Shown here piece by piece: positions 25,400-45,353 of a stretch of 64,000 nucleotides of DNA. Numbering within the stretch: the first letter of the stretch is position 1; each line of letters begins with the position of its first letter. The position numbers and the translations under genes were made by a program. The stretch is from Alphaproteobacteria bacterium (GTDB lineage: Bacteria > Pseudomonadota > Alphaproteobacteria > UBA828). The notes under the pieces are model-generated. The model made no database searches. It saw only the letters and a list, made by a program, of their open reading frames with translations, and was not told the DNA's origin. The DNA lies in contig OZ243972.1 in the NCBI GenBank assembly GCA_965214705.1, positions 2,976,001-3,040,000 of the forward strand. The letters are read 5' to 3'.

Positions 25400-25622
25400 A
25401 CATTCATCGAAGGGCTTGACGGGATCGACCGCATCGAACTGCTCCCCGTCTCCGACTAACGCGACCAAGGCATGCACAGCTCATAGGCGATCCTGAGCAA
25501 GTCGCGAGCCTGGACGGTCGACGCCAACGAATCCTCGTCAATCACCAAGACATCCTTGGCGAAAGCTTCCCGTAAGTCGCGGTCGCCCCAGCGCGTGAAC
25601 CTTCGCTCGGCGACACCGTCAT
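25400..25622 (-). pseudogene. relic of a MobF/TraI-type relaxase helicase domain
   Basis: Hand translation FAKDVLVIDEDSLASTVQARDLLRIA, frameshift, then VALVGDGEQFDAVDPVKPF (RecD-like motifs II and III). Confidence 0.7.
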
Positions 25623-26177
25623 GCGCACCTGCGGTGCTAATGTACTGACATAGCGTTTCTTTTTCCCTCCTGTTGTAGCCGATGGGCGCGAATTCGGTCC
25701 GCGTATTCGCCCCGTCTTGAACTAGGAATGCAGGAGGAATCTCTATGGCAACGCTTCACCTCAGTCGACGCCGCGTCGGTTCGCTCAAGCCCCGCAAGTC
25801 CACCTACGACATTCGCGACCGTGAACTCAAGGGCTTCGGCGTAAGGGTCCTGCCCTCGGGCGCCAAGCGCTACCTCATCCATAGCCAGCACAATGGTTGT
25901 CGCGTCTGGAAGATCGTCGGCCAAGCCGGGTCCATCGGCGTCGACGAGGCCCGCGAGCGGGCGAGAGCCATGCTGGCCTCGATCCGGAATGGAAACGACG
26001 CGGACGTTGTGGCCACGCCTGACACCGTGTTCGAGACAGTCGCCGACGAAGTGTTCCGGCGCTACGCCCGGAACTGGAAGCCGTCGACGCTCAAGGTCAA
26101 TCAAGGATACTACCGCAAGCAAATCCTGCCCTGGTTCCAGGGACGCCCTATCGCCGACATCACCGCCCAAGGTTAAG

Positions 26178-28269
26178 CCGAACTTCCAGTGTGGGATAGT
26201 CAAAGAACCGTTGTGCGGCAGGGGTTTCGGCGAGTTTCGAAGCGACGATTACTGGACAGGTTTGGCGGTGGTCATCCCCTTTTCGGTGAGCGCGGGCGCA
26301 GGATGGGGCCGCAGCCCGAGCAATGCGAACGCCCTTTCCTGCAGTTCGGTCGGCTTGGTCAGGGCGGGCACGGCGAAGTCGGTTCCGGTGGCGATCTCAG
26401 TGGCAGCAAGCGTGCCGAGATGGCCGAGGAGATCGCGGAAGTCGCACACCGCAAGTCCATCATCCGTCTTTCGGCGCTTGTCCTTGCGCCGGGCCTTTTC
26501 CGAGCGTTCCGGCGGCGCCACCGGGTTCGCGGACAGCGGCGCTCCGTCCTCCTCGGCGAACAGCAGCGGCGCCAGCCTGCGGCGCATGTGCCACTCGACA
26601 TACCAAGCCAGCATGCAGATCAGAAGATGCGCCCGTACTCGGTCGTCGCGCCAGTGGAAGATCGGGCGGATCCGCAACGACACCGTCTTGAGCGAGCGGA
26701 AGGCGCGCTCGACGCGTGACAGGCTCTTGTAGACGCGGACCGCCTCGACGTCCTCGATCTCGTCCTCGTCCACGTTGGTGCGTATGACGTAGAGACCGTC
26801 GAGGGCGGCCTCGGCGTCGATCGACGCCCGGTCGCGTTCGCAACTGAAGGTGCCGCTGCCCTCGTCGAATTCGAAGCGGAAGTGCTTGGCCATCTTGCGG
26901 CGGCGCAAGGTTCCCAGCCGACGGTTCAACTCGTCGCGGTCGATGTCGCCGGCGGCGTGGCGCGCGGCGAAATCGCGCGCGTCCGTCTCGGTCGCATTGA
27001 GCAGCCCGTCGCGGTTGCGCTTGCGCTCGGCCGCCAGAACCGGGTTGTAGCAGACGATCAGCCTCTCGCCGGGATAGTCCGGCGTGGTCACCCGCGCGAG
27101 GCCCCAGGTGTCGAACAGGCCGGGCGTGACATGCCCCCGGTCGACGAGCTTGCGGATCGAGGATGCGCGCAGCGCCGTGATCCAGTCGATGCCGTTGGGC
27201 GCGAGGTCGCGGTCGATGCGGGTCTGCGCGATCATGCCGCGGTCCCCCACCAACACCACCCGCCGGATGCCGAAGCTGTCGCGGACCTTGCGCACCTGGC
27301 TGGCCAGAGTCATCGGGTCGCCGGTGTTGCCGGCGAAGGCCTCGATCGAGACCGGACAGCCATCGCGGGTGCAGAGGAGGCCGTAGACGATCTGCGGGCG
27401 GTCGCCCCGGCGATCCCTCGAATAGCCGCGCTTCGCCATGGGGCAGGCGTTGCCCTCCATGTAGCTCGAGGACACGTCGTAGAGGACGAGATCGTCCTCT
27501 CCGAGATGGCGCCGGGCGAGCTTGCGCTCGATCGCGCCCTGTCGCGCGCCCAGCCAGTCCATGGCGGCGTAGAGTTCGTCGACGCTGACGCCTTCGACGC
27601 CGAGCAGGGCGGCGAGGGTGGTTGTGCCGGCCGCTCCCAGTTCGCGCTCGACGCGCAGCTTGGCGCCGGGCCGGATCAGGCGGGCGACGATCATGGCGAT
27701 GACGAGGGCCCTGCGGCGATCGGGCCGGTGGAAGATGACGCGGTCGAGGCCGATGTCGCGAAGGGTGCCGAGAACGGCGCTGACGGCGCCGTGCGCCCGG
27801 CTGGCGCGCAGTTCGACGTCGGCGCTGTCGGGATTGAGGGCGGGTCCGCGCTTGAGGGCGCGTTTGAGGGCTTCGATGGCGTGTTCCGGGAGGGCGGAGA
27901 GGTTGCACAGGGTGCGCTTCTTGGGTTTTCCGTCCTGCCAGTAGGACTGTCTGAGGAGGTGGCAGCGGGAGTTTCCGGACCGGGTGGTTTCGATGTGCAT
28001 ATCGATCTGCCTAGCGAATCGCGGCAATCATATCGGAAAGGCTTGGGAATGCGGAGCAATTATCGTAACGAGAAAACTATCTACTGACTAGTATTCAGGT
28101 TTTGGTGGATGCGCCGGGACGGCGTGATCCAGCGCTGGAGCGCCGAATCGCGGCGGTTTCGGCGATCATTTCGGGAATTTCGCGCCAAACCGGGCGCTAA
28201 ACTGCGCAGAAAGGGCGGAAACAGGCAAAATCCGGCCAGATCGGCAATCAGATGCTAACGGAAGTTCGG
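26178..28269 (-). mobile_element. second, distinct IS1634-family insertion sequence
   Basis: IRs CCGAACTTCC / GGAAGTTCGG; 6-bp TSD GTTAAG at 26172-26177 and 28270-28275. Confidence 0.9.
26249..28000 (-). CDS. IS1634-family transposase
   Basis: LYDVSSSY, GYSRD, VGDRGM, VERAFRSLK..IRPIFH. Confidence 0.92.
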   Translation of the reverse strand: MHIETTRSGNSRCHLLRQSYWQDGKPKKRTLCNLSALPEHAIEALKRALKRGPALNPDSADVELRASRAHGAVSAVLGTLRDIGLDRVIFHRPDRRRALVIAMIVARLIRPGAKLRVERELGAAGTTTLAALLGVEGVSVDELYAAMDWLGARQGAIERKLARRHLGEDDLVLYDVSSSYMEGNACPMAKRGYSRDRRGDRPQIVYGLLCTRDGCPVSIEAFAGNTGDPMTLASQVRKVRDSFGIRRVVLVGDRGMIAQTRIDRDLAPNGIDWITALRASSIRKLVDRGHVTPGLFDTWGLARVTTPDYPGERLIVCYNPVLAAERKRNRDGLLNATETDARDFAARHAAGDIDRDELNRRLGTLRRRKMAKHFRFEFDEGSGTFSCERDRASIDAEAALDGLYVIRTNVDEDEIEDVEAVRVYKSLSRVERAFRSLKTVSLRIRPIFHWRDDRVRAHLLICMLAWYVEWHMRRRLAPLLFAEEDGAPLSANPVAPPERSEKARRKDKRRKTDDGLAVCDFRDLLGHLGTLAATEIATGTDFAVPALTKPTELQERAFALLGLRPHPAPALTEKGMTTAKPVQ

Positions 28270-28576
28270 GTTAAGGGTTGGGCAGGCTCTCTCTCGAGAG
28301 CCTGCCCAACCCTTTTGAACGAAGCCGCGGGCCACGAGAGGCGAAGTTGAGCTATGTGGAAAGTGCGCTGATGTCAGCGTCAGGCGGCATCCACCGGCAG
28401 CAGAGTTGCGCATAAAATCGACGCTCGCGCCGGTCTTTCGGCAGGCATGCGGGCGCACGCTGCGAGGACTGAGCGGGGTGTGAGCCGAGGGCTGTCAGCC
28501 CGGCTCAAGCGGAGACAGGTTCGGTCGTGCGTCGGCGCTTTGGCGCCGTTGCGCGGGGCCGAAGCGAGCGGGCGTC

Positions 28577-29820
28577 TCACGGTTTCCCCCTGTGGGTCGG
28601 CGGCAGCGCCGGCGGGCCGCGCGTCGAGCGGGGCTCATGGCGGCGGCGGATTTCGCGGACGAGGCGCATGACGCCGCCGCAGTGGGGGCAGGCCACGGGC
28701 GCGGTGCCGATCTCGGGCTCTTCGTCGGGCTCGGCCCGAGCGCCGTCCACGCTTCCCTCGGGGGCGGCGCAGCCGAGGGCGCCGAGAGCCTGGCGTGCTC
28801 TCTCCAGCGTGCTGGCGCGGCAGCCGTTGGCGAGGATGCCGAAGTAGCGAATGCGGTGCATGCCGTCCGGCAGGACGTGCCTCAGGAAGCGGCGGATGAA
28901 CTCGTCGGCGCTCACGGTGGCGATGCCGTAGCGCGGCTTTCTCTGCCCCGGCGCCTTGGGCTTTCGGTGGCGGAAGGAGACCGTCTCGCCGTCGAAGGAG
29001 ACGATGCGGCTGTCGGAGATGGCGATCCTGTGCGTGTAGTGCGAGAGGTACCGGAAGACCTGCTCAGGCCCGCGGAAGGGCCGCTTGGCGTAGACCACCC
29101 AGTCCCTGGCCCGGGCGGCGGCAAGCGTGGCGTGGAACTCGCCGGGATTGGCGAGGTGGGCGACGGTGCCGTGGAACTCCAGGTCCCCCCGGCCGTGGGC
29201 GCGGGCGAGCTCCTCGAGGAAGAGGCGGCGGAACAGGCTGCCGAGGACCTTGACGGGGGCGAGGAAGGTGGTGCTCCCCGTCTTCCACTCGCCACTGTCT
29301 ACGTCGAAGCCCGCGTTGGGCACGACCACGTGCAGGTGCGGGTGGAAGCGGAGCTTCTGATCCCAGGTATGGAGGACCGCGGTGCCGCCGATGCGCATGC
29401 CGCCGTGGCGGGGATCGGCGGCGATGGTGCGCAGGGTCTCGGCGACGGCCCGGAAGAGGATGTCGAACACCACCCTGCGGTTGCAGAAGGCAATGGCGGC
29501 AACCTCCTTGGGCAGGGTGAAGACCACATGGAAGTAGGGCACCGGCAGGATGTCCCCGGCGCGCTCCTCGCTCCAGAGGTTGGCGGCGAGACCCTGGCAG
29601 GTGGGGCAGTGGCGGTTGCGGCAGGAGTTCTGAAGAGCGGATGCTCGCGCCCGCAGCCCTCGCAGGCGTACATGTGGCCGCCGAGCACGGCGGTGCGGCA
29701 CGCCTCGATGGCGCCCATGACCTTGAGCCGGGCGGCGTCGATGCGCCCTTTGTGGCGCTCACGGAAAGCGGCGCCGGCGCGGCGGAAGATCTCCGCCACG
29801 CCCGCGCGTTCGGCCTCCAC
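28577..29820 (-). pseudogene. IS91-family HUH (Y2) transposase, frameshifted
   Basis: 2-bp insertion near 29630 relative to the intact copy; SCRNRHCP.C, HPHLH, YLSHY. Confidence 0.88.
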
Positions 29821-29826
29821 GCGCCG

Positions 29827-30705
29827 TCAGTTGCGCAACGCTGCGAAGCCTGAGATCGGGTGGTCGAGGCCCTCGAACATCTTGCCGGTGACGCGGGCGT
29901 AGTGACGGGTCGTGTTCGCGCTTCGATGGCCGAGCATGTCCCGGATCACCTCGATATCGCCGCCGCGCTCGAGGAGATGGGTCGCCGCCGAATGGCGCAG
30001 GCAATGGAAGGTGTAGCTGCGGTCGAGCTCGGCAATGTCGCGCGCCCTCCTGAAGGCGGCCTGCAAGGTCTCCGTTGCGATGGGCCTGTCGAGCGAGACG
30101 CCGTAGAAGAGCCAGCTCGTCGGACGCGGCCAGATGTTCCTGTAGTAGACGCGCAAGTAGTGGATGACGATGTCCGGCAACGGTGCCATTCTCTCGGTGC
30201 CGCCTTTGCCGGAGGGGATGTGCAGCAGCTTCTTCTCCGACAGGATGTCGCCGACCTTGATGGCCAAGGTCTCGGAGATGCGGAGCCCGCCGCCATAGCC
30301 GGTGACAATGGCAGCACGGTGGCGGAGGTCGGGTGTCGCAAGGATGAGGTGCTCGACCTCCTGCTCCGACATGTAGCGCGGCAGCTTGCCGGGCTTCTTG
30401 CGGGAGCGCAGGCCGGCGACATGGTCAGGCCAGCCGAGTGTGTCGATGTAGAGGAAGTTCAGCGCGGCGAAGGAGACGTTGGTCGTGCCCGGACTGAGCC
30501 CCTTGTCGATCCGCCCCAGGTACCACTGGCGCACCTGCTCGGCGTCGAGCTCGTCCGGCGAGGCGTCGTAGTACCTGGCCAGGTTCTTGATCTCGCAGAT
30601 GTAGGCCTTGGACGTGCTCGCGGCCAGATTGGCGATGCGGAGCTGCTCCTCCATGCGCTGGCGAAGAGGGGTGACGGTGTTCGTGTCGCACGCGGTCCCG
30701 GTCAT
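29827..30705 (-). CDS. tyrosine recombinase associated with the IS91-like transposase
   Basis: PLRQRM.., GLRISE, GKGG, HCLRHS.ATHLLE, LGH, Y. Confidence 0.9.
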   Translation of the reverse strand: MTGTACDTNTVTPLRQRMEEQLRIANLAASTSKAYICEIKNLARYYDASPDELDAEQVRQWYLGRIDKGLSPGTTNVSFAALNFLYIDTLGWPDHVAGLRSRKKPGKLPRYMSEQEVEHLILATPDLRHRAAIVTGYGGGLRISETLAIKVGDILSEKKLLHIPSGKGGTERMAPLPDIVIHYLRVYYRNIWPRPTSWLFYGVSLDRPIATETLQAAFRRARDIAELDRSYTFHCLRHSAATHLLERGGDIEVIRDMLGHRSANTTRHYARVTGKMFEGLDHPISGFAALRN

Positions 30706-31695
30706 TATCGATCTCCCTGGATCGCGACGGCGCGCCGCCGGACCGATCCGGCGACGGTCCGTCGCAGGGGTCGATGCTAACCACTGGTGATCGGGAGGCT
30801 GCTGGGGATCCGCCACCCGACGGGCGGAGCGCCACTGACGCAACCGGGAAGCGAACGCACAGAACAAACGGCACCCGCGACGCCTCGGAAATGAATGAAC
30901 TCTACGCCGCTAACTCCGCGTAGCGGCTTCGTTCAAGACGTCAAGCAATGGTTCGCGTCCCCTCACATTACCCCGGTGGCGGCAGACCGCTCGGCCCGCA
31001 TCCTGTCAGTCATCATGCGCCAGGCCGAGGTCTACGGCTACCGGCCGGAGGGGACCAATCCGTGCAAGGGCATCAAACGATACCGGCGACAGGGACGGGA
31101 GCGCTTCCTGTCGGCCGTGGAGATACGCCGGCTTGGCGAGGTGCTGGCACACTTCGAGGCCGACCACCGGCAGGCTGTGGCGATCATACGGCTGCTGTTG
31201 CTCACCGGATGCCGGAAAGGCGAAATCGTCGCCCTGAAATGGAGCTACTACCGCGAGGGCAAGCTGTTCCTTGCGACAGCAAGTCCGGGCCGCGAACGAT
31301 CTGGCTCTCGTCCGCCGCGCGCGCGATCCTCGACAGCCTGCCTCGCACGACGGCCTGGGTCTTTCCGTCGCCGCGGTCGAACAGCTTCTTGAGCGCGGAG
31401 GCGGTGGACTTGGTCTGGCATCGCGTGAGGGCGGAAGCGGACCTGTGCGATGTCCGCCTTCACGACCAGAGACACACGTACGCGAGCATGGCCTTGGCGC
31501 AAGGCGAGACAGTGCTGACCATCGGCCGGCTGCTTGGACACCGCAACCCGGCAACGGCTCTGAATTACACCCACCTACGCACCTTCGGTTCTAATTGTTT
31601 GAAATAGAGTCGTTTTTTCTCCTCCACCTTGTTGCATCCGGGCGAATTGGGCAACCGTCTGTTCCCCGGCTGCAACCGCAACCGGGAGAACGGAG

Positions 31696-32817
31696 ATGGC
31701 CAGGATTACCCTCACCGAGGCCCGAGTCACGGCGCTCAAGGCGCGAAAGACCGCCTACGATACTCGCGACGGCAAGCTCAAGGGCTTCGGAGTCCGCGTG
31801 CTGCCTTCGGGAGGAAAGCGCTTATTCATCCATTGCCAGCACCGGGGAGAGCGCATCTGGAGAATCGTCGGCGCCACCGACGCGATGGGCCTGGCCGAAG
31901 CGAGAACACGGGCTGTCGCCATGCTGACCGCGATCCGGCGCGGCGAAGAGCCCCTCCCATCGGAGGAGAACGCCATCTTCGAGAATGTCGCCGACGAGGT
32001 ATTCGACCGATACGCTCTGCGATGGAAACCGGGAACCCTACGGGTCAACCGCTGCTATCTGCGCAACCAGATCCTGCCGCGCTTCGCCGGGCGCCAGATC
32101 ATGGATATCGACAGTCAGGATGTCCGCAACTGGTTCGCCTCGCTGCGTGCGACGCCGGTCGCGGCCGACAGGTCGATGCCGGTACTGTCCGTCATCATGG
32201 GGGAGGCAGAAGCCATGGGCCTTCGCCCCGAGGGCTCCAACCCGTGCCGGGGCATCCGGCGCTACCGACGAAAGGGGCGCGAGCGATTCCTGTCCGATGA
32301 CGAGATCCGCCGGTTGTCCGCGAGACTGTCGGCGCATGCCGGGAGCAGGCCCCTGTCGGTCGGCGCCATCCGCCTCCTCCTGCTGACCGGTTGCCGGAAA
32401 GGCGAGATCCTGAGCCTTCGATGGTCGGACTATCGCGACGGCCATCTCTTCCTGCGCGACGGCAAGACCGGTCCGCGAACCGTCTGGCTCTCGCGGCCAG
32501 CCAGAAACGTTCTCGACGGTCTCGAGCGAACGAGCCGCTGGGTATTTCCGGCGTTGCGGGAGGATCGGCCACTGAGCGGCGCCTGGCTGCACTGGAACTG
32601 GTGCCGGGTCCGCGAGGAAGCCGGGCTGCGCGACGCGCGTCTTCACGACTTGCGTCATACCCACGCGAGCCTGGCCATGCGGGAAGGTGAATCGATCCTG
32701 GCCATCGGGCGCCTTCTGGGCCACCGCGATACGGAGACGACGCTCAAGTATGCTCATCCGACCGACGGAATGGTGATGGATGCCACCGAGACGGTCGGCG
32801 CCGTGTTGGGGCGCTGA
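31696..32817 (+). CDS. arm-type tyrosine recombinase 2 (intact)
   Basis: GFGVRVLPSG arm-binding domain; TGCRKGE, KTG, HDLRH, LLGH, KYAH. Confidence 0.92.
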   Translation: MARITLTEARVTALKARKTAYDTRDGKLKGFGVRVLPSGGKRLFIHCQHRGERIWRIVGATDAMGLAEARTRAVAMLTAIRRGEEPLPSEENAIFENVADEVFDRYALRWKPGTLRVNRCYLRNQILPRFAGRQIMDIDSQDVRNWFASLRATPVAADRSMPVLSVIMGEAEAMGLRPEGSNPCRGIRRYRRKGRERFLSDDEIRRLSARLSAHAGSRPLSVGAIRLLLLTGCRKGEILSLRWSDYRDGHLFLRDGKTGPRTVWLSRPARNVLDGLERTSRWVFPALREDRPLSGAWLHWNWCRVREEAGLRDARLHDLRHTHASLAMREGESILAIGRLLGHRDTETTLKYAHPTDGMVMDATETVGAVLGR

Positions 32818-32820
32818 GCG

Positions 32821-33672
32821 ATGGCCAGCAAGAATCGCGCGAGGCTCACCGATGCCTTGATCGCCCGTCTCCGGCCGCGCGAAAGAGAATATACGGTGTG
32901 GGACCTCCGCTTGCCCGGTCTCGGGGTCCGGGTGAGGACGACGGGCGCGCGGACCTTTGTCCTGCTGTGGGACGCGCAGGGCCGATCGAGGCGTGTATCC
33001 CTCGGTCCGGTCGGGGCGAGAACGGTGGAGGAGGTTCGCCGCGAAACTCACGCTCTGGCGGCGGCATCCCCTCCAAACGGACCGCTCGGACGTGACGGGA
33101 CCGGACGAGCCGCCCCGTTGTTCCGGGATTTCGTGGAGGGTCCGTGGAAGGAAGCCCATTTCGATCGCTACAAGCCGTCGACGAAAGAGGGCGTGCGGTA
33201 CGCGCTTCGCAATCGACTGCTGCCAGCTTTCGGGCCGAAACCGCTGGATCGCATCTCCCTCGCAGACGTCAGGCGCTGGTTCGACAAGTACAGTCGAACC
33301 GCCCCGGGCGGAGCCAATCGTGGCCTCGACCTCCTTCGCCAGATCATGAACTTCGCCGTCTCGCAGGGCCTTCTCGACACCAACCCGGCACGGAACATCA
33401 AACACAATCCCCGGCCCAGGCTCACCCGGTTCCTTTCTCGCGAGGAAATCGCCCGCCTTCACCGAGCGCTCGATGACCATGCGGGAGGGAAAGCCCGGCC
33501 GCAGGCCGACATGATCAGGCTGCTTCTTCTGACCGGATGCCGAAGAAGCGAGATCGTACGGCTGCGCTGGTCGGAGGTGCACGACACCGCGCTGATGCTG
33601 GCCGACAGCAAGACAGGAATATTTCTCGACAGCTACGTTGGTCATACGGTCTGCTACGCTGGTTCACCATAA
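32821..33672 (+). pseudogene. arm-type tyrosine recombinase 3, truncated after LADSKTG
   Basis: WD..LPGLGVRV, TGCRRSE; lacks HxxR and the catalytic Tyr. Confidence 0.85.
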
Positions 33673-33802
33673 AGCATTATATTTGCTCTAGTTTTCTTGA
33701 TCTTTCGCCGAAACGACCCTCTTGCGCCTGCGCGGAGAATACGCTTGAATGCGCCCCGGTTCCATGCCGCTTATTTGCGGTTTGATCACGGGACGAAGAG
33801 CG

Positions 33803-34984
33803 ATGCCGAAGCGAAGCAGTCTGAAGATCGCCAAGCGCACCGTCGATGCGCTCCGCGTCGATCGCGGCGACGCCACCTTCTGGGACCGCGACCTCGCGGG
33901 CTTCGGGGTACGCGTGCACGCGACCGGGCGCAAGGTCTACGTGGTGCAGTCCAGGGGGCCGGGTGGCCTGAAGCGCGCCAGGATCGGCAGGCACGGCGAT
34001 CTCACCGTCGAAGAGGCGAGAACGCGGGCGGTGGCGGCGATCGACCGGATCAAGCGGGGCGAGGATCCCTTCCCGGCGCCTGCGGCGCCGGCGCTCACCG
34101 TGGCCGGGCTGGCGGAGCGCTATCTGGAGAAACATGTGGCGATGCACTGCAAGCCGAAGACGGCGGCACTCTACCGGACGGTGCTGGACCTGCACATCCT
34201 GCCGGTTCTGGGCGACAAGGCTCTCGGCGAGGTGAGGCGGGAAGACGCGGCCGAACTGCATCACCGGCTGCGCGACACGCCCTACATGGCCAACACCGCT
34301 GCGGGCGTTCTGTCGAAGATGTACCGGCTGGCGGAGAGCTGGGAGCTGGTGCCGCGCGGGTCCAACCCGTGCCGGTCCCTGCGCTACTACCGCGAGCATG
34401 CGCGCGAGCGGTTCCTGACGCCGGAGGAATACCGCCGGCTGGGCGCGGCGTTGCGCGAGGCGGGATCGAAGGCATCCCCGTGGCCGCAGGCGGTGGCGGC
34501 GATCCGGCTGCTGATCCTGAGCGGCTGCCGCAAGAGCGAGATCCTGACGCTGAAGTGGGACGACATTGACCGGGTGGCGAACGAGCTGCGGTTGAGGGAC
34601 GCGAAGTCGGGGCCGCGCATGGTGCCGCTGACCCCGCCGCTGCTGAAGGTGCTCGACGGCATTCCCCGGACGGACGGCGGTCCGTGGGTCGTGCCGGGCC
34701 GCAAGCCGGACACCCATCTGATCAACCTCGACTACTACTGGAAGCGCATCACCGCGAGAGCCGGTATCAAGGGCGTGCGCCTTCACGATGCGCGTCATTC
34801 TTATGCGAGCCGGGCGCTGGCGCTGGGCGAAAGCCTGAGCATGATCGGGAGGCTGCTGGGTCATTCCCGGGTGGCGACGACGGCGCGCTATGCGCATCTG
34901 GTGCGCGACGCTGAAAAGGCGGCGGCGGGCCGGGTGGGCGACAGTATCGGCGTCCACGTGGCGCCGGAGCGGAGCGCGGCATGA
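33803..34984 (+). CDS. arm-type tyrosine recombinase 4 (intact)
   Basis: FWDRDLAGFGVRV, SGCRKSE, HDARHS, LLGH, RYAH. Confidence 0.92.
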   Translation: MPKRSSLKIAKRTVDALRVDRGDATFWDRDLAGFGVRVHATGRKVYVVQSRGPGGLKRARIGRHGDLTVEEARTRAVAAIDRIKRGEDPFPAPAAPALTVAGLAERYLEKHVAMHCKPKTAALYRTVLDLHILPVLGDKALGEVRREDAAELHHRLRDTPYMANTAAGVLSKMYRLAESWELVPRGSNPCRSLRYYREHARERFLTPEEYRRLGAALREAGSKASPWPQAVAAIRLLILSGCRKSEILTLKWDDIDRVANELRLRDAKSGPRMVPLTPPLLKVLDGIPRTDGGPWVVPGRKPDTHLINLDYYWKRITARAGIKGVRLHDARHSYASRALALGESLSMIGRLLGHSRVATTARYAHLVRDAEKAAAGRVGDSIGVHVAPERSAA

Positions 34985-36140
34985 AGGGGACGCGGCGGCG
35001 GACGATCTCCAACCGCATGGTGGCGGCGCTGGAGGTCGAGCGGGACACGGTGTTCTGGGACCGGGAGCTGAAGGGCTTTGGGGTACGGGCCTATCCCGGC
35101 GGCGGCAGGGTCTATGTCGCCCAGGCGCGGGGGCCGAAGGGACCGAGGCGCGTCACGGTGGGGCGCCACGGGGTGCTCAACGCCGAGGAGGCGAAGCGCC
35201 GCGCGGCGCTCATCATCGCGCGGGTCAAGGCGGGCGAGGACCCGGTACCGGAGCCGCTGGCGGCGAAGCTGTCGCAGGGGCCGACGGTGGCCGATCTCGC
35301 GGCGAGCACGTCACGGTGCGCTGCAAGCCGAAGACTGCGAGGACGACACGCAGCGTGGTGCAACGGCATATTGTGCCCAGGCTCGGCGGTTTGACGCTGG
35401 CGGCGGTCGGGCCCCGCGACGTATTGGAGCTGCATCACGGTCTCAGCGACCGGCCCGCGATGGCGAACATGACGGTGGCCACGCTGTCGCACATGTACAG
35501 GCTGGCCGAGGGCTGGGGCATGGTGGCGGACGGCGTCAACCCCTGTGGGTCGGTGGCGAGGTATCCGTCGAAGCGCCGCGAGCGGTTCCTGACCGACGCG
35601 GAGTTCGAGAAGCTGGGCCGGGTGCTGGACGAGGCGGAGGCGCGGGGCGGCGCGTCGGCGGGCGCGGTGACGGCGATCCGGCTGCTGATGCTGACCGGGT
35701 GCCGCAAGAACGAGATCCTGAGCCTGCGCTGGCGGGACGTTGACCTCGACGCGGGCGAGCTGGCGTTGGCGGACGCGAAAACTGGCCCGCGCGCGGTGCC
35801 GCTGCCGCCCTCGGCGGCGCGGCTGCTGGCTGCGCTGCCCCGCAAGCCCGACAATCCCTGGGTCATACCGGGACACAAGCCGGGCACGCACATGACCGAC
35901 ATCGACGGGGCCTGGCAGACGCTGCGGGCGCGCGCCGGGCTTAAGGGTGTGCGGCTTCATGACCTCCGTCACAGCTACGCTTCGAGGGCCTTGGCACTCG
36001 GGGAATCCCTGCCGATGATCGGCAAGTTGCTGGGCCACAGCCAAGTCGAGACCACGGCGCGCTATGCGCACCTCGCGCGCGAGTCGGTGCACAAGGCGGC
36101 GGCCCGGATCGCGGACAGTATCGCCGCGGACGTATTGTAG
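34981..36140 (+). pseudogene. arm-type tyrosine recombinase 5, frameshifted near 35300
   Basis: FWDRELKGFGVR in one frame; EHVTVRCKP..TGCRKNE, HDLRHS, RYAH in another. Confidence 0.85.
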
Positions 36141-37155
36141 GCTCGCCGTTTGGGAGGTATCGGGGGTCTATGCTGTCAGGGATGAAGACGCGCGCCGGGC
36201 GGTCCAGCCAAGTCGATGGCGCCGACATGTGAGCGCAACGCCCGGCTGAAGAGTGTCCATGAGTATCTTACCGCTGGCGTGGCTGAGCGGGCACAGAACA
36301 CTCGATTAGTCGAGGCCGATCGCCCGCCAAAGTTTGGCACGGGCATTCAGGAAGAAGCCAATGTATTCGCCGTGCAACGACATGCCTTGCAGACGGAGAC
36401 ATCCCAGCCGCTTGACTCGGAGGTAGCCGTCGCCCCAGGACTCGGGGGCAGCTTCCCAATCCTTTAGATTGTCGAGTTCGGGTCTGTAGGTGTCGCCCAT
36501 GACGGCGAAGTACGCTGACGGCAAGCACAGCTGGGGCACGCTGAATTCGACATCGTCACGGTCAAAGTCGAAGCCGAACTGCACGGAGATGTTCTTCTGA
36601 TCATCCACCCAGGGAGAGCTGTAGTACAAATCCTCCCTATTGTGGCTCCACTGGTTACCCTTGGTGCCGGAGAGCCCGCACGCTTCTTTGGTTTCATTCA
36701 GAATTTGCACGAGCTGAGGGCCGACTGACCTGTGATAAATCGTCGCTGTCGCCAGAAGGCCAGCATTGAGGTTCATGGCCATTCTCCATTCCTCCATAAG
36801 CGAAAGCAGTTCGCGAACGAAGAGCGTACTTTGGTCATCGGCGCCAGTGGTCGGCTTGGCCCACCCTCTCATCCAGTCCGCCATTTCGAACCAGTGAACT
36901 GGACGGAATGCAACTGGGGGGCCTTCGAGCGACGCTTGAAACGAAGTTCGCTCATGAAGCGTAGCATAGGCCAGGGTGCGTGTGTCGGCGGTAGTTTCGC
37001 GTTTCAGGTGCCGCTCATACCTTGGTAGCTGACCCGGTCCTTCTCCCGACGCGATTTTGCTTTCCATCGCGATCACGTGGCGGGCACCATTGCGCCGGCT
37101 CCGTGCATCGATCCAGATGTCGAGCCGATCGCCACCTTCAACAGTCTTTTGGGTT

Positions 37156-38184
37156 GGCTCAATTCGTGAATCGTAGGCATTAGGGTAGAATCGCTCCCGG
37201 TTCGCCTTGGAGGTCAGACAGATGGATCACGAGCGGTTTCGGGACTGGTTTTCGCGTGTCGATGAGTTGACGGCGGCGCAGCGCAAGGAGGTGGCGGCGG
37301 TGCTGTCGGACCCGCCGGAGGGCGCGGCCGCGCTGGCAGCGATCGAGTTGGGCGTGGATGACGAGCGGCACTGTCCGCATTGCGGCGCCGGCGGGGCGGT
37401 GTCGCGGGGCAAGGCGCGCGGTCTTCGCCGGTTCCGGTGCAAGGAGTGCGGGAGGAGCTTCGGCGCGCTCACCGGCACGGCGCTGTCCGGGCTTCACCAC
37501 AAGGAACGCTGGCTTGCCTTTGGCGCGTCGCTTGCCGAGGGCGAGACGATCAAGGAGTCTGCCGCGCGCTGCGGGATTGCGCCGAGCACGGCGCATCGCT
37601 GGCGCCACCGTTTTCTGGCGGCTGTGCGCCAGGCGCCGGACCGGCATGCCGGCATCGTTGAGGCGGACGAGACATTCGTCCTTGAGAGCCGCAAGGGGGA
37701 GCGGAAGCTGGACCGCACGCCGCGCCGGCGCGGCGGCAAGGCCCGCAAACGCGGCCTTTCGCGCGAGCAGGTGCCGATCCTGGTCGCCGCCGACCGTGGC
37801 GGCGAGACCCTCAGCCATACCCTGCCGGCGCTGAACGCAGACAGCATGAAGGACGTGCTGGAGCCGGTCCTCGCCCCGGATGCGCTGCTCGTCTCCGACG
37901 CCAACCGCTGCTATCCGCCCGTCGCGGCGGCGCTCGACATCCCTCACGAGAGCATCAACGCCTCGGCTGGCGAGCGGGTCCGGGGCGCGCTGCACATTCA
38001 GACGGTCAACAGCCGCCACAGCCAGATCAAGGGCTTCCTGCGCGGGCGGCGCGGCATCGCCACCAAGTACCTCGACAGCTATCTGAGGTGGTTCCATCTC
38101 ATCGAACTCGGCGACCAGCCATCGCCCAGGGCTTGCCTTGAGGCGGCGATGGTGAGGCCACGCCTACGGTTCGCGAATTGAGCC
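37156..38184 (+). mobile_element. IS1595-family insertion sequence
   Basis: 23-bp IRs GGCTCAATTCG(T/C)GAA(T/C)CGTAGGC; 8-bp TSD TTTGGGTT. Confidence 0.93.
37222..38181 (+). CDS. IS1595-family transposase
   Basis: CPHC..CKEC zinc finger, VEADET, HIQTVN, ATKYL..YL.W. Confidence 0.92.
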   Translation: MDHERFRDWFSRVDELTAAQRKEVAAVLSDPPEGAAALAAIELGVDDERHCPHCGAGGAVSRGKARGLRRFRCKECGRSFGALTGTALSGLHHKERWLAFGASLAEGETIKESAARCGIAPSTAHRWRHRFLAAVRQAPDRHAGIVEADETFVLESRKGERKLDRTPRRRGGKARKRGLSREQVPILVAADRGGETLSHTLPALNADSMKDVLEPVLAPDALLVSDANRCYPPVAAALDIPHESINASAGERVRGALHIQTVNSRHSQIKGFLRGRRGIATKYLDSYLRWFHLIELGDQPSPRACLEAAMVRPRLRFAN

Positions 38185-38832
38185 TTTGGGTTTCAAGATA
38201 AGCGAAGTCCACATCGTGGCCGATGAGCCACTTGACGAATGCCAGCCGGAGGGGCTGGCTGGTTTCGAGAACCGCGACGAGCGTCTCGGTAAAAAAAATC
38301 CTCCGCAGGCATGCGGCCGGCACTCGGCCGATATCTGAAGATGCGTCCGAATACGCTGCTCATAAGGCCTTGCCGGTTGAGATTGCAAAGGGGTTTATAT
38401 CGAAAAGTGCCGAAAATCCTTGACCCTCCCGCGTTTCGGCACTATATTGTGAACATCAAGGGGGGGGGCGGACATGGCACAGAAGGCACCGGGCAAGTCT
38501 CACCGCAAGGGCATGACCCTTCAAGGTTAAGGGTTGGGCAGGCTCTCTCTCGAGAGCCTGCCCAACCCTTTTGAACGAAGCCGCGGGCCACGAGAGGCGA
38601 AGTTGAGCTATGTGGAAAGTGCGCTGATGTCAGCGTCAGGCGGCATCCACCGGCAGCAGAGTTGCGCATAAAATCGACGCTCGCGCCGGTCTTTCGGCAG
38701 GCATGCGGGCGCACGCTGCGAGGACTGAGCGGGGTGTGAGCCGAGGGCTGTCAGCCCGGCTCAAGCGGAGACAGGTTCGGTCGTGCGTCGGCGCTTTGGC
38801 GCCGTTGCGCGGGGCCGAAGCGAGCGGGCGTC

Positions 38833-40074
38833 TCACGGTTTCCCCCTGTGGGTCGGCGGCAGCGCCGGCGGGCCGCGCGTCGAGCGGGGCTCATGGCGGC
38901 GGCGGATTTCGCGGACGAGGCGCATGACGCCGCCGCAGTGGGGGCAGGCCACGGGCGCGGTGCCGATCTCGGGCTCTTCGTCGGGCTCGGCCCGAGCGCC
39001 GTCCACGCTTCCCTCGGGGGCGGCGCAGCCGAGGGCGCCGAGAGCCTGGCGTGCTCTCTCCAGCGTGCTGGCGCGGCAGCCGTTGGCGAGGATGCCGAAG
39101 TAGCGAATGCGGTGCATGCCGTCCGGCAGGACGTGCCTCAGGAAGCGGCGGATGAACTCGTCGGCGCTCACGGTGGCGATGCCGTAGCGCGGCTTTCTCT
39201 GCCCCGGCGCCTTGGGCTTTCGGTGGCGGAAGGAGACCGTCTCGCCGTCGAAGGAGACGATGCGGCTGTCGGAGATGGCGATCCTGTGCGTGTAGTGCGA
39301 GAGGTACCGGAAGACCTGCTCAGGCCCGCGGAAGGGCCGCTTGGCGTAGACCACCCAGTCCCTGGCCCGGGCGGCGGCAAGCGTGGCGTGGAACTCGCCG
39401 GGATTGGCGAGGTGGGCGAGGGTGCCGTGGAACTCCAGGTCCCCCCGGCCGTGGGCGCGGGCGAGCTCCTCGAGGAAGAGGCGGCGGAACAGGCTGCCGA
39501 GGACCTTGACGGGGGCGAGGAAGGTGGTGCTCCCCGTCTTCCACTCGCCACTGTCTACGTCGAAGCCCGCGTTGGGCACGACCACGTGCAGGTGCGGGTG
39601 GAAGCGGAGCTTCTGATCCCAGGTATGGAGGACCGCGGTGCCGCCGATGCGCATGCCGCCGTGGCGGGGATCGGCGGCGATGGTGCGCAGGGTCTCGGCG
39701 ACGGCCCGGAAGAGGATGTCGAACACCACCCTGCGGTTGCAGAAGGCAATGGCGGCAACCTCCTTGGGCAGGGTGAAGACCACATGGAAGTAGGGCACCG
39801 GCAGGATGTCCCCGGCGCGCTCCTCGCTCCAGAGGTTGGCGGCGAGACCCTGGCAGGTGGGGCAGTGGCGGTTGCGGCAGGAGTTGAAGAGCGGATGCTC
39901 GCGCCCGCAGCCCTCGCAGGCGTACATGTGGCCGCCGAGCACGGCGGTGCGGCACGCCTCGATGGCGCCCATGACCTTGAGCCGGGCGGCGTCGATGCGC
40001 CCTTTGTGGCGCTCACGGAAAGCGGCGCCGGCGCGGCGGAAGATCTCCGCCACGCCCGCGCGTTCGGCCTCCAC
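38833..40074 (-). CDS. IS91-family HUH (Y2) transposase with zinc-binding domain
   Basis: CRT..LGG, NSCRNRHCPTC, YFHVVFTLP, HTW..HPHLH, YLSHYTHR, RIRYFG. Confidence 0.93.
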   Translation of the reverse strand: MEAERAGVAEIFRRAGAAFRERHKGRIDAARLKVMGAIEACRTAVLGGHMYACEGCGREHPLFNSCRNRHCPTCQGLAANLWSEERAGDILPVPYFHVVFTLPKEVAAIAFCNRRVVFDILFRAVAETLRTIAADPRHGGMRIGGTAVLHTWDQKLRFHPHLHVVVPNAGFDVDSGEWKTGSTTFLAPVKVLGSLFRRLFLEELARAHGRGDLEFHGTLAHLANPGEFHATLAAARARDWVVYAKRPFRGPEQVFRYLSHYTHRIAISDSRIVSFDGETVSFRHRKPKAPGQRKPRYGIATVSADEFIRRFLRHVLPDGMHRIRYFGILANGCRASTLERARQALGALGCAAPEGSVDGARAEPDEEPEIGTAPVACPHCGGVMRLVREIRRRHEPRSTRGPPALPPTHRGKP

Positions 40075-40080
40075 GCGCCG

Positions 40081-40959
40081 TCAGTTGCGCAACGCTGCGA
40101 AGCCTGAGATCGGGTGGTCGAGGCCCTCGAACATCTTGCCGGTGACGCGGGCGTAGTGACGGGTCGTGTTCGCGCTTCGATGGCCGAGCATGTCCCGGAT
40201 CACCTCGATATCGCCGCCGCGCTCGAGGAGATGGGTCGCCGCCGAATGGCGCAGGCAATGGAAGGTGTAGCTGCGGTCGAGCTCGGCAATGTCGCGCGCC
40301 CTCCTGAAGGCGGCCTGCAAGGTCTCCGTTGCGATGGGCCTGTCGAGCGAGACGCCGTAGAAGAGCCAGTTCGTCGGACGCGGCCAGATGTTCCTGTAGT
40401 AGACGCGCAAGTAGTGGATGACGATGTCCGGCAACGGTGCCATTCTCTCGGTGCCGCCTTTGCCGGAGGGGATGTGCAGCAGCTTCTTCTCCGACAGGAT
40501 GTCGCCGACCTTGATGGCCAAGGTCTCGGAGATGCGGAGCCCGCCGCCATAGCCGGTGACAATGGCAGCACGGTGGCGGAGGTCGGGTGTCGCAAGGATG
40601 AGGTGCTCGACCTCCTGCTCCGACATGTAGCGCGGCAGCTTGCCGGGCTTCTTGCGGGAGCGCAGGCCGGCGACATGGTCAGGCCAGCCGAGTGTGTCGA
40701 TGTAGAGGAAGTTCAGCGCGGCGAAGGAGACGTTGGTCGTGCCCGGACTGAGCCCCTTGTCGATCCGCCCCAGGTACCACTGGCGCACCTGCTCGGCGTC
40801 GAGCTCGTCCGGCGAGGCGTCGTAGTACCTGGCCAGGTTCTTGATCTCGCAGATGTAGGCCTTGGACGTGCTCGCGGCCAGATTGGCGATGCGGAGCTGC
40901 TCCTCCATGCGCTGGCGAAGAGGGGTGACGGTGTTCGTGTCGCACGCGGTCCCGGTCAT
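40081..40959 (-). CDS. tyrosine recombinase associated with the IS91-like transposase
   Basis: Near-identical to 29827-30705; catalytic R-K-H-R-H-Y set intact. Confidence 0.9.
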   Translation of the reverse strand: MTGTACDTNTVTPLRQRMEEQLRIANLAASTSKAYICEIKNLARYYDASPDELDAEQVRQWYLGRIDKGLSPGTTNVSFAALNFLYIDTLGWPDHVAGLRSRKKPGKLPRYMSEQEVEHLILATPDLRHRAAIVTGYGGGLRISETLAIKVGDILSEKKLLHIPSGKGGTERMAPLPDIVIHYLRVYYRNIWPRPTNWLFYGVSLDRPIATETLQAAFRRARDIAELDRSYTFHCLRHSAATHLLERGGDIEVIRDMLGHRSANTTRHYARVTGKMFEGLDHPISGFAALRN

Positions 40960-42232
40960 TATCGATCTCCCTGGATCGCGACGGCGCGCCGCCGGACCGA
41001 TCCGGCGACGGTCCGTCGCAGGGGTCGATACTAACCACTGGTGATCGGGAGGCTGCTGGGGATCCGCCACCCGACGGGCGGAGCGCCACTGACGCAACCG
41101 GGAAGCGAACGCACAGAACAAACGGCACCCGCGACGCCTCGGAAATGAATGAACTCTACGCCGCTAACTCCGCGTAGCGGCTTCGTTCAAGAGCTTTTCC
41201 GCATGTTCCCGGATGACGCGACCGCCGAGAAATGGTTTGCAGAAAAGCGCTGGCCCGATGGCCCGCACTGCCCTTACTGCGGATCGACCAACGTCCAGTC
41301 CGGCGCCAAGCACAAGACCATGCCCTATCGGTGCCGCGAGAAAGCGTGCGCCAAGCGATTCAGCGTCCGCACCAAGACGCCTATGGAATCGTCGAAGCTC
41401 GGCTTTCAAACATGGGCTATCGCGCTTTATCAGGTCACGACCAACCTCAAGGGCGTTTCGTCCATGAAGCTGCATCGTGACTTGGGGATCACGCAGCGGT
41501 CAGCGTGGTTCCTGGCGCATCGGCTCCGCGAGGCGTGGAAAGATCACGGCCCACAGTTCACCGGTCCCGTAGAGGCCGATGAGACGTATATCGGCGGGAA
41601 GCGGAAGAACATGCCCAAGAGCAAGCGGGCGAAGCTAACGGGGCGCGGAGCGGTCGGGAAGGCCATCGTGGTGGGAACCAAGGACCGCGCGACCAACAAG
41701 GTTGCGGCGCGTCGCGTCGAAAACACGGAAGGCGCGACGCTCAAGGGCTTCGTCGCCGAGCACACCGCGCCCGGAGCCAAGGTGTTCACCGACGAGTCCA
41801 GTTCCTATCAGGGCATGGATTTCGACCATGAGCCCGTGAACCACTCGGCTGGCGAGTATGTGCGCGGCATGGCGCACACCAACGGGATCGAGTCCTTCTG
41901 GTCAATGCTGAAGCGCGGCTATCGGGGAACCTTCCACCACTTCAGCGAAAAGCACCTAGATCGGCACGTCACGGAGTTTTCGGGTAGGCACAATGATCGT
42001 GATTCCGATACTACAGACCAGATGTCTCTGCTGGTTTCCCGAATGATTGGAAAACGGCTACGCTATCTTGATCTGACGGCATAAGTGGTTTGCCGTTTGT
42101 TGCAGACAAGGAACACCAGAATTCGTTAGCAACAAAGGTAGTTGCTGGCTGGTCACTAGAGCACGCTAGTGTCTGGGCCTCATCATCAGCAGAGAACGTT
42201 ACGACGCGAAGAGGTGACATTGCTTCCTCCAT

Positions 42233-43102
42233 TCAGTCTTTTGACATAGAGAAGGTTACACCGTGATTACTTAAGATAGGAATAATAGTGCTCACGTGCG
42301 TTCCCATTCCTGTATTGAGGAATTGGTGTTCCCTATTCCGATGATTAGGGACCTCTGGAGAGAAGCCGAGGGGGTGGTGCATCGTTCTCGACTGCATTGC
42401 CCAAATTCTCCCCTTTGCGTCAAATGTTGGACCGCCGCTTTGTCCGCGCAAACCGGGCGATGATGTTTCCACAAATTCAGCAGATATCTTACCATTCCCA
42501 ACTACCACAGTGCGAGTGAAAATGCCTTCAATCGGGAAAAGCGGAATTGGGAATGCGCCCGACGGAAACTCAAATGTATTGCTAGCTTCAACAAATGTTG
42601 GTGTAATGCTATGAAAAGGGAATCCCAATTTACATAGGCTCTCGCCAACATCGACGTTTGTCGAAGGATTCTTAAATGTGGGATATTTCGTCACGCGTGT
42701 CTTATCGAATCCAGAAAGCTGACCTATAGCCACGTCTGCTAGCGCATCAATTTGAAATGAATCGATGCGCCATCCGTCGTACCCCCACCATGGCGAGAAT
42801 TCGGTTATGTGGTTTGCGGGAGGTTTGGCCAAGGACCTTATCGACTTTTTCCGTTGGGCCTTTGTGAGCTTTTCATCAGCGTTGATGTTAGAGATTTCCC
42901 CCTTATAGTCAGTATAGGATTCCAGTTCCGCCTTATATTTCTGTATTTCGCTCACTATATGGTGCGCTGTAAGAATCCAACCATCCTCATTAAGGACAAT
43001 AAATGCACCTATCGAGCTGCCGGTCGAGCCATCCCGTCGGCGACGAGAAATAACGACCGGCAGCGTGTATTGCTGCGCCTCTTTTATCGCTTCTTGAAAC
43101 AT
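42233..43102 (-). CDS. trypsin-like serine protease (IS passenger, low GC)
   Basis: ILTAHH, ADVAIG, GQSGGP catalytic triad motifs. Confidence 0.85.
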   Translation of the reverse strand: MFQEAIKEAQQYTLPVVISRRRRDGSTGSSIGAFIVLNEDGWILTAHHIVSEIQKYKAELESYTDYKGEISNINADEKLTKAQRKKSIRSLAKPPANHITEFSPWWGYDGWRIDSFQIDALADVAIGQLSGFDKTRVTKYPTFKNPSTNVDVGESLCKLGFPFHSITPTFVEASNTFEFPSGAFPIPLFPIEGIFTRTVVVGNGKISAEFVETSSPGLRGQSGGPTFDAKGRIWAMQSRTMHHPLGFSPEVPNHRNREHQFLNTGMGTHVSTIIPILSNHGVTFSMSKD

Positions 43103-43149
43103 GCTAATGGGTCACTCGGAAAGTCAGACAGGACGAACATCATCCCCAC

Positions 43150-43320
43150 TCAGGGATTGTTGTTCTGTGGTCCCTTCGGCTCATTGCGCTCGGCACCGCC
43201 ACACGTGACGGCCCACGCCAGCGCTTCAGGCGTGGCGTTGATGCTCACGTCCTCTTCCAAGTCGGCTTTGGTTGGTTGGTGGGCCGCCGGATCGGTGGCC
43301 TTCAGGTCTCGGACTGCCAT
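43150..43320 (-). CDS. small hypothetical protein inside the IS1595 element
   Basis: GGGGGAGG RBS; MAVRDL..HQPTKADLEEDVSINATPEALA. Confidence 0.55.
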   Translation of the reverse strand: MAVRDLKATDPAAHQPTKADLEEDVSINATPEALAWAVTCGGAERNEPKGPQNNNP

Positions 43321-43867
43321 CGCCTCCCCCTGTGAAGCTGTGTCCACACGATGGTAGATATAGGAATTGGGTGCGCATCCTGACACACCCTCATCCACAG
43401 CACACCCGGAAAATGATACCCCTCATCGGCATACCCGCGCGTGGGCTTCGGCCATGGGGCCGAGGCGTTCGGCACTTTTCGATATAATCCCCATTGCAAA
43501 CTGTCCTTTGTAGCTCTTGCGTTGGCGAACGATTCTCGATTTCGAGCATCGACCGATTGTGGTGGTGCCAGTGATTAGCCAGAAGTCTCGGTCCCTTTGC
43601 GGCTGACGGTGCCACTATCCCATCGTGCGGTGTGGGCGGTCCAGGGCGACCTGTTCGGCGCTTCGCCGAACGAGGAGGTGATCGACGGAGCGTTGGCGCG
43701 GTGCACCAATCCCGGCGACGACGCCATCTTAAGCGGCCACGGCTTCGGAAGGAAACCCGTTCGGCAGGGACCTTCGGAGTTCGACCGAGGGGAAGGCAGC
43801 ACCGGTGTGAGCGGCCATCCCGTCCGGCCCGTGACGGCGCATTCTCTTGGCACCTGATCGGAGACGC

Positions 43868-45336: not shown

Positions 45337-45353
45337 CTGCTGCGTAGAACAGT

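Follow-up and report, generated by a model that had tools for sequence, protein, structure and literature searches.

The DNA analysed here (the window) is a stretch of 64,000 nucleotides from an alphaproteobacterium of the GTDB lineage UBA828 (assembly GCA_965214705.1, contig OZ243972.1), which corresponds to C1:2976001-3040000 of the genome designated G000, a 7.9-Mb assembly of three contigs. The DNA has 65-75% G+C. Between positions 25745 and 36140 five genes for arm-type tyrosine integrases, named int1 to int5, follow one another on the + strand, and the subject of this study is the origin of this array and the nature of the mobile elements to which its genes belong. An original prediction made from the sequence alone had described five co-oriented genes, two of them intact and three damaged, with a gap of 3 nt between int2 and int3, an ATGA overlap between int4 and int5 and an N-terminal arm-binding domain in the proteins, and this description agrees with our analysis. 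The features are given below with raw coordinates of the open reading frames (ORFs); attL and attR denote left and right attachment sites, ICE an integrative and conjugative element, and the letters A, B, C and D integrases like int2, int3, int4 and int5, respectively.

25613..25640, + strand: attL of the outermost (int1) element, core ACACCGTCAT (25613-25622) followed by the left-end motif GCGCACCTGCGGTGCTAA (25623-25640)
25745..26172, + strand: int1, 5' part, A-type, arm-binding and SAM-like domains (PF13356, PF14659), 56% identity to int2
26173..~28268, - strand: IS4-like element with a DDE_Tnp_1 transposase (PF01609), inside int1; ten genome matches start at 26173, right boundary approximate
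28269..30936, - strand: 2668-bp IS91-family unit with a Y2_Tnp transposase and a XerC-like tyrosine recombinase, inside int1; second copy at ~38525-41190
~30937..31576, + strand: int1, 3' part, catalytic domain PF00589, cut off in the Y-T-H-L codons
31567..31594, + strand: attL of the int2/int3 element, core ACACCCACCT followed by the left-end motif ACGCACCTTCGGTTCTAA (from 31577)
31696..32817, + strand: int2, A-type, intact, 373 aa, in the A clade of the tree
32821..33614, + strand: int3, 5' two thirds, B-type, reached from the int2 stop through TGA GCG ATG; B clade, support 1.0
33604..33614, + strand: attL core of the conjugative element, GACAGCAAGAC, D-S-K-T codons of int3; the exact repeat at C1:3077195-3077205 is attR
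33615..64000, + strand: left 30.4 kb of the 67.6-kb ICE, which continues to C1:3077194
33749..34984, + strand: int4, C-type, intact, 411 aa
34981..36140, + strand: int5, D-type, ATGA overlap with int4
43868..46135, strand by gene: regulatory genes of the ICE, Peptidase_S24 (LexA/CI-like) at 43868-44641 (-) and 44635-45447 (-) and HTH_17 (excisionase-type) at 45377-46135 (+)
47313..64000, + strand: conjugation genes of the ICE, TraK, TrbI, TraV, TraC, TraU, TraN, TraF and TraH, interrupted by DDE transposase ORFs

The five proteins share 31-61% identity (56-61% between int1 and int2, 55% between int4 and int5 and 31-41% in the remaining pairs), and thus the array is not the outcome of recent tandem duplication. 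The arm DNA-binding domain PF13356 is present in all five genes. In int2, int3 and int4 it is accompanied by a SAM-like core-binding domain and the catalytic domain PF00589; in int1 the N-terminal domains are found in the 5' part and PF00589 in the 3' part, while int5 shows PF13356 in its N-terminal frame and PF00589 further on. The box-I segments of all five genes form a single repeat family. Three genes are damaged in different ways. Besides being split by insertion sequences, int1 carries a 1-nt frameshift near 31271; contigs assembled from the short-read runs X15, X16 and X2 have an extra G behind 31271 and those from X1 an extra C at 31273. Either addition would remove the frameshift, which may thus be due to faulty assembly of a GG run, or the contigs may derive from paralogues. 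int5 is inactivated by a deletion of 13 nt at 35303/35304, relative to two intact sister copies. Finally, int3 tracks its B-type relatives only as far as 33614, where its sequence gives way to the left end of a third element.

Analysis of this last junction reveals what happened to int3. The prediction that the gene is broken stands, but it is split rather than truncated, and its 3' third lies 67.6 kb downstream, beyond the window. Within the next 190 kb the 11-mer GACAGCAAGAC has a single exact recurrence, at C1:3077195; it is preceded there by AT-rich sequence and followed in frame by the 3' third of int3 (C1:3077195-3077572). This segment encodes DSKTGPRKVPL...HDLRHTHAS...LLGH...RYAHL..., the 124 residues that complete the B-type integrase, and covers positions 67-168 of PF00589. 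Since both GACAGCAAGAC and the remainder of int3 recur 67.6 kb downstream, the int4/int5 element was inserted in int3 with formation of an 11-bp repeat. Its recombinase genes are located at the left end, direct repeats flank it with the two halves of int3 outside them, and mating-pair formation genes, the TraC ATPase, a coupling protein and a relaxase are all encoded between the repeats; the element is therefore an ICE. The transfer system is of the F type, and the part beyond the window contributes TraG_N, a TrwB-type coupling protein, a TrwC relaxase, restriction- or defence-like genes and several insertion sequences. Its present-day transfer function is doubtful because transposase ORFs interrupt some of the genes, and with a broken int5 the element would be mobile only if intact sister modules supplied the partner.

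The landing in an integrase gene is not confined to this copy. The genome contains two sister copies of int4, with 94% and 91% identity, and each of the three int4-type copies stands behind a different integrase gene (of the B, C and A type), cut at the D-x-K-T-G codons. Among 29 C-type loci of the genus for which upstream sequence is available, the junction GA[CT]A[GC]nAAGACAGG was found in nine, and all nine are preceded by an integrase fragment ending at D-x-K-T-G. These fragments belong to the A, B, C and D types and come from genomes G000, G005, G006 and G013, and the first genes of the nine modules share 62-100% identity with int4. Neither the junction motif nor an integrase fragment is present at the other 20 loci. 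AAGACAGG is the junction sequence of the int4-clade modules. From these data we infer that the regular attachment site of the int4 clade is provided by the conserved codons around the catalytic lysine in other integrase genes.

To the left of int4 two further junctions can be seen, each composed of a core and a left-end motif, one in front of int1 and one between int1 and int2. The core of the latter, ACACCCACCT, corresponds to the native int1 codons tAC ACC CAC CT (Y-T-H-L), which indicates that the int2/int3 element also entered an integrase gene. In this case the choice of target is probably an accident of the ACACC contained in Y-T and H-T codons: among 70 unique left flanks of A/B modules only three lie in an integrase gene on the same strand, and three more on the other strand. 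The absence of cargo between the integrase genes once the nested elements are removed, another feature of the original prediction, is explained by the position of the targets, because each incomer hit the leftmost gene of the resident and the cargo lies entirely to the right.

The genes int2 and int3, as well as int4 and int5, represent two kinds of a unit which is conserved well beyond this locus. The genome contains at least 150 integrase matches, and sorting of six-frame ORFs gives about 30 A+B loci, with an int2-like gene followed by an int3-like one, and about 18 C+D loci, with an int4-like gene followed by an int5-like one; there are some 45 two-integrase modules in all. In a tree of 91 full-length proteins of the genome the A type forms one clade (32 tips, support 0.61), the B type including int3 is supported at 1.0, C and D group together at 1.0, and the kind of D represented by int5 is a sub-clade with support of 0.90. 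A-type matches (E <= 1e-60) occur in all 18 sampled genomes of the same genus, with 2-37 in each, and in two of 12 sampled more distant genomes, where the best E-values are near 1e-64. In order to see whether int2 and int3 types travel as pairs, as the original prediction had proposed to check, we took the best 80 of 237 stretches encoding relatives, from a scan of one genome per species; these loci come mostly from metagenome-assembled Alphaproteobacteria, Defluviicoccus or Rhodospirillales bins. A B-type gene follows within ~125 nt downstream of A in 72 of the 80. The remaining eight comprise five truncated A genes, one insertion between the two genes, one interrupted A gene and one A gene alone. 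The int4 and int5 types behave likewise, with a second integrase gene directly downstream in 30 of 30 C-type loci of the genus.

Conservation extends to the spacing of the two genes and to their catalytic residues. A stop codon, 3 nt and a start codon stand at the junction of the genes in 77 of 97 A/B pairs (71 with TGA, 5 with TAA and 1 with TAG), an arrangement characteristic of translationally coupled genes. All six catalytic residues (R-K-H-R-H-Y) are present without exception in 103 A, 95 B, 49 C and 26 D distinct sequences, and thus neither partner is a dead copy. Paired integrase genes are found as well on plasmids of cultured bacteria, where they are annotated merely as 'site-specific integrase': in Aurantiacibacter atlanticus s21-N3 (NZ_CP015441.1, overlapping genes at 30609-32911) and in Photobacterium damselae (NZ_CP146975.1), the latter a conjugative plasmid in a cultured gammaproteobacterial host. 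On the Photobacterium plasmid (66246-68857, locus L120) the two overlapping integrase genes are followed by an overlapping replication initiation gene, and type VI secretion genes adjoin.

The ends of the A+B modules define large islands rather than the gene pair itself. In 27 of 28 copies of the genome the left junction consists of ACACC, five variable nt and then the motif; across genomes it reads as unrelated flank, ACACC (in ~60 of 72 unique flanks), five variable nt and (G/A)CGCACCT(N)CGGTGCTAA. The right end terminates in ...AGGT(A)GTGC, the inverted counterpart of GCGCACCT, so that ACACC+N5 would be enclosed by short inverted arms once the ends are joined. A promoter-like TTGACG-17-TGTATGATA was noted by eye in three A/B right ends. 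In three cases for which a reference exists, ACACC and the next five bases are native target sequence: the Y-T-H-L codons of int1, the R-H-T-H codons of the integrase gene at L041, and a 2160-bp insertion sequence. The last of these is the most informative, as about 40 intact copies of this insertion sequence serve as empty-site references. One A+B module is inserted 259 nt into it: intact copies read ...ACACCGACAAG|GCCGG..., the occupied one ...ACACCGACAAG|CGCACCTTCGG..., and the remainder of the interrupted copy is found 35.9 kb downstream, after an AT-rich end and a repeat of ACACCGACAAG. The ACACCGACAAG site at position 259 of this 40-copy insertion sequence (e.g. C1:353582) is used repeatedly and is a hot spot for A/B islands, with left junctions at C1:3355696, C3:2067572 and C1:655649 and right junctions at C1:3391593, C1:597586 and C3:1420737.

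More generally, the ACACC+N5 core is repeated downstream, immediately after a conserved AT-rich end (...TTAGGACC or ...TAGTGC), in 16 of 37 A/B left ends, at a distance of 14-95 kb in 15 of them and in one doubtful case of 165 kb, and in none of the 37 does such a repeat lie next to the B gene. One island of 13.9 kb is a mobilisable element, since it encodes a TrwC relaxase of 1592 aa. Empty sites were searched for within the genome by pairing 200-nt left and right flanks within 400 nt; none was found, because the true right flanks lie tens of kb away. Likewise, the 1.5-kb flank of one island (L001:1-1500) has no match in 20 other genomes of the genus. Two further islands showed peculiar ends. 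At the right end of a 21.9-kb A/B island (C1 ~360455, - strand) the 12-nt unit GACACCACCCGC stands at least four times in tandem after the att core, and the core itself is multiplied. In two modules with 97.6% identity (C1:3381546/3377394 and C2:610228/640517) the cores match crosswise, the left core of one being the right core near the other, which suggests that these islands, although located on different contigs, have recombined or undergone an exchange.

The two insertions within int1 are probably later additions. The 2668-bp IS91-family unit has 66 full-length copies in the genome, with 99.7-99.9% identity. At four loci it adjoins one and the same end of the IS4-like element that is also found in int1, and at three more the other end of that element; this adjacency could reflect a preferred GTTC-type target at the ends of the IS4-like element or co-mobilisation by one-ended rolling-circle transposition. 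As one copy is located at the ACACCGACAA site we considered a target shared by this unit and the integrase elements, and rejected it as coincidence: the 66 copies lie after ..AA / ..TTC(G), as is usual for targets of IS91.

Taken together, these data lead us to propose, with a probability of about 0.8, that the array consists of nested integrative elements, each led at its extreme left end by a coupled two-integrase operon of the A+B or C+D kind. An A-type element, of which int1 is the remnant gene, would have integrated after ACACCGTCAT; a second A+B element, carrying int2 and int3, would then have entered an ACACC+N5 site within the Y-T-H-L codons of int1; and the 67.6-kb conjugative element with int4 and int5 would have entered the D-S-K-T-G codons of int3, duplicating GACAGCAAGAC. 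Subsequently insertion sequences would have split int1, and the deletion of 13 nt would have killed int5.

Two explanations contained in the original prediction have to be weighed against this proposal. In one of them the pair is a minimal, cargo-less module of ~2.4-2.7 kb, similar to an insertion sequence, which holds nothing more than two integrase genes and accretes in tandem. It is correct that the unit is conserved and translationally coupled and piles up head to tail, and the nucleotide similarity between copies (up to 98.6%) indeed stops at the two genes and a leader of ~100 nt. Nevertheless, the unit is neither minimal nor without cargo: the right ends found lie 14-95 kb off, or 14-165 kb if the doubtful one is counted among the 16 left ends, none stands beside the second gene, the interrupted insertion sequence and int3 resume only after 35.9 kb and 67.6 kb, respectively, and relaxases and transfer systems are encoded between the ends. 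We also considered whether the element might end on the right with the stop codon of the second gene, and rejected this, the conservation there being that of coding sequence. Such a unit is thus highly improbable. The other explanation, a single ICE keeping a library of five integrases with different target specificities, would accord with the conjugative element directly to the right and with the divergence of the five proteins; yet the GACAGCAAGAC repeat brackets only int4, int5 and their cargo, int1 to int3 remain outside it and int3 is split by the ICE, its halves flanking the element. Furthermore, int1 and int2 each have a left-end motif and core of their own, three of the five genes are broken, and modules elsewhere are single pairs, so that we consider the library more improbable still and abandon it.

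A more conventional origin would be tandem accretion at a shared attachment site, such as a tRNA gene, followed by internal deletions that removed the cargo. Tandem arrays of ICEs at one site are on record in passages of Cury et al. (2017, PMC5587801), and the missing right ends of two of the three elements tell that deletions did occur. Against this stand the absence of any tRNA gene in the 64-kb window, the disparity of the three junction cores (ACACCGTCAT, ACACCCACCT and GACAGCAAGAC), two of which are native codons of the integrase gene upstream, and the location of the int3 3' part at the far end of the ICE, which calls for insertion and not deletion; accretion of this kind is very unlikely. 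Finally, paralogous integrase genes might have been mis-joined in a repeat-rich metagenome assembly, and a genome with more than 100 such genes, 66 copies of one insertion sequence and an estimated contamination of 8.7% would lend itself to such errors. Independent short-read contigs speak otherwise. A contig of 385 nt from run X15 spans the int1|int2 junction, and contigs of 2190 nt (X15 and X16) and 429 nt (X1, from another study) span the int3|int4 junction, all with zero differences; contigs matching the junctions come from four public runs of two studies. Because these contigs match both junctions exactly, the array is no assembly artefact, and the ends of the ICE are moreover mutually consistent, with an 11-bp repeat and two in-frame halves of one gene. 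Mis-joining is therefore the least probable of all the explanations considered. Joints within some short-read contigs were also examined as possible evidence of excision and rejected, since they connect equivalent places of different integrase genes through short sides and are best read as paralogues.

Several observations weigh against the proposal of nested two-integrase elements. The attR sites of the int2/int3 and int1 elements (ACACCCACCT and ACACCGTCAT, respectively) have no convincing match in the whole genome; the nesting of these two elements is therefore deduced from their left junctions, and it must be assumed that their right ends were lost or moved by later deletion or rearrangement. 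Similarly, the GACAGAAAGAC sequence of the two int4/int5 sister copies occurs only at their left junctions, which leaves them without attR, and no promoter-like site with a match to the consensus was found at the ends of the ICE. As for the 16 repeated A/B cores, five agree over the full 11-mer and the remaining 11 differ at one base, in most cases the eleventh; cores with one mismatch are frequent by chance, and these 11 calls depend on the AT-rich end motif as judged by eye. No excision product or empty site was found among the assembled short-read contigs, which cannot show rare forms. The assembly is of the metagenome type, and with its estimated contamination the copy numbers may be slightly off. 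Joint action of the two partners, with mutual need and mutual binding, is inferred.

A more far-reaching proposal can be put forward tentatively and at somewhat less than even odds. The pairs would be obligate two-subunit arm-type integrases of a large family of conjugative and mobilisable elements, a counterpart of XerC/XerD among mobile elements, and one clade of the family would use the catalytic-lysine codons (D-x-K-T-G) in the integrase genes of other elements as a dedicated site ('integrase-hunting' ICEs). Already under the proposal of nested elements, the partners would form a mixed recombinase tetramer on the core, with short inverted arms around ACACC+N5 or GACAG+N5-6, each partner being responsible for one pair of strand exchanges in the manner of XerC and XerD. 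Directionality may come from arm-type sites located in the leader and in the AT-rich right end, and the element would excise as a circle and be transferred by its own or a helper conjugation system. For the int4 clade, the conserved integrase codons of its relatives would offer a safe and widely available site, the resident being inactivated in passing.

If this proposal holds, 'integrase-hunting' ICEs would find a conserved, harmless and multi-copy landing site wherever a rival island sits, and by disabling and trapping the rival they would build integrase arrays and Russian-doll islands. Such landing in conserved integrase codons would clearly exemplify conflict, or hitch-hiking, among mobile elements, and it provides a rule for the recognition of nested islands, namely half an integrase gene at each end. 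The short ACACC+N5 site explains the spread of islands to dozens of places per genome without tRNA targets. Should the pairs be two-subunit integrases, they would represent a second heteromeric class of tyrosine recombinases besides Xer, open to experiment, and island finders and ICE classifications that expect one integrase would mis-delimit these elements, split them or read the arrays as 'degenerate integrase clusters'. The presence of modules on plasmids of cultured bacteria makes these predictions testable at the bench.

The surroundings of the array contain further mobile DNA. To its left we found a group II intron reverse transcriptase/maturase (15500-17074, - strand), an IS66 transposase (19192-20934, + strand), a GyrB/ParE-like ORF of 553 aa without the N-terminal ATPase part (3016-4677, - strand) and a primase-like gene with DUF7146 and Toprim_3 (13835-15031), a type of gene typical of conjugative elements. 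The integrase array itself may lie within older island DNA. In two ORFs, at 4876-6747 (- strand) and 48515-49699 (+ strand), DDE_Tnp_1_assoc is joined to a DruA-like domain (PF14236, Druantia defence protein), and the second is followed by a DDE_Tnp_1 ORF; they belong to an insertion-sequence family with a DruA-like N-terminal domain.

The paired design and the landing of one lineage in integrase genes seem not to have been described previously: neither a paired module of arm-type integrases nor any element targeting integrase genes is described in the full-text literature searched, which leaves most subscription journals outside. The comparison that follows draws on passages of the papers cited. 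Transposons of prokaryotes with tyrosine recombinases are divided there into five groups, namely ICEs and integrative and mobilisable elements (IMEs), SE, GInt, RIT and Tn554 (Idola et al., 2023, PMC10214605). By their cargo and ends the present elements are ICEs or IMEs, while their recombination module differs from the usual single integrase. With ICEs and IMEs of the P4 and SXT type (DUF4102, equivalent to PF13356) they share the order of domains, arm-binding PF13356, SAM-like and catalytic PF00589, the integrase at one end, short direct repeats, and a type IV transfer system with relaxase and coupling protein. Those elements, however, have one integrase (with an excisionase) and tRNA- or prfC-type sites, whereas here two coupled, distinct and catalytically complete integrases are combined with cores of 10-11 bp in ordinary or integrase genes. 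Passages of Cury et al. (2017, PMC5587801) report 21 ICEs with at least two integrases, and a paired module is not defined in them.

Two adjacent tyrosine recombinases, with catalytic motifs in both and both required for movement, are known from Tn554 (tnpA, tnpB, tnpC; PMC3414803, PMC10214605). These recombinases belong to the 'simple' type and lack an arm-binding domain (Smyshlyaev, 2021, PMC8138268), and the searched main-text passages of Smyshlyaev et al. (2021) make no mention of pairs of arm-type recombinases. Tn554 is further characterised by one unusually long recombinase, a third protein (TnpC), no target repeat and a 6-bp footprint, unlike the present pairs, in which both recombinases are of ordinary length (373-411 aa) and a core of 10-11 bp is repeated at both ends. 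Strand-biased circularizing elements (SE, intA-tfp-intB-srap) and GInts (ginABCD) resemble our islands in their left-end operon of several recombinases, for which translational coupling has been suggested, their variable cargo and their short AT-rich right end (PMC5385486, PMC10214605). As they are described, SE and GInts are nonetheless set apart by four core genes, including a protein of the recombinase fold without catalytic residues (Tfp/GinC) and a small accessory protein (Srap/GinD), while the present modules have two genes with a gap of 3 nt and no further gene in it, both of them encode R-K-H-R-H-Y, and the sequence after the second gene varies.

RIT elements, with which the original prediction had compared the array, consist of tandem, overlapping and divergent tyrosine recombinase genes (ritA, ritB, ritC) that move as a unit and reach many copies in some alpha- and beta-proteobacteria (PMC3414803). 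Their three recombinases are 'simple', without arm domains (PMC8138268), and the elements are bounded by inverted repeats and cargo-less (PMC10214605). The distinction by arm domains drawn in that prediction is upheld, as PF13356 is present in all our types, and it has to be added that the units are pairs and not trios (72 of 80 and 30 of 30 loci), with at least 14 kb of cargo. BIM elements of Cupriavidus were also considered and rejected, because they combine one recombinase with an unrelated protein (PMC3414803).

A parallel for the proposed division of labour is provided by XerC and XerD, since in both systems two paralogous and active tyrosine recombinases would work on one core site. The present proteins do not belong to the Xer families, as they score 30-63 bits with the NCBIfam models against cut-offs of 279-335 (best scores 45.6-62.8 against 329.6-335.15), and Xer proteins, unlike the present pairs, have no arm-binding domain and no mobile-element context. 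The splitting of an integrase gene also has its precedent in the archaeal integrases of the SSV type, whose attachment site lies inside the integrase gene, so that the element splits its own gene upon integration. In the array described here, by contrast, the gene that is split by the incomer belongs to another element, already resident at the site.

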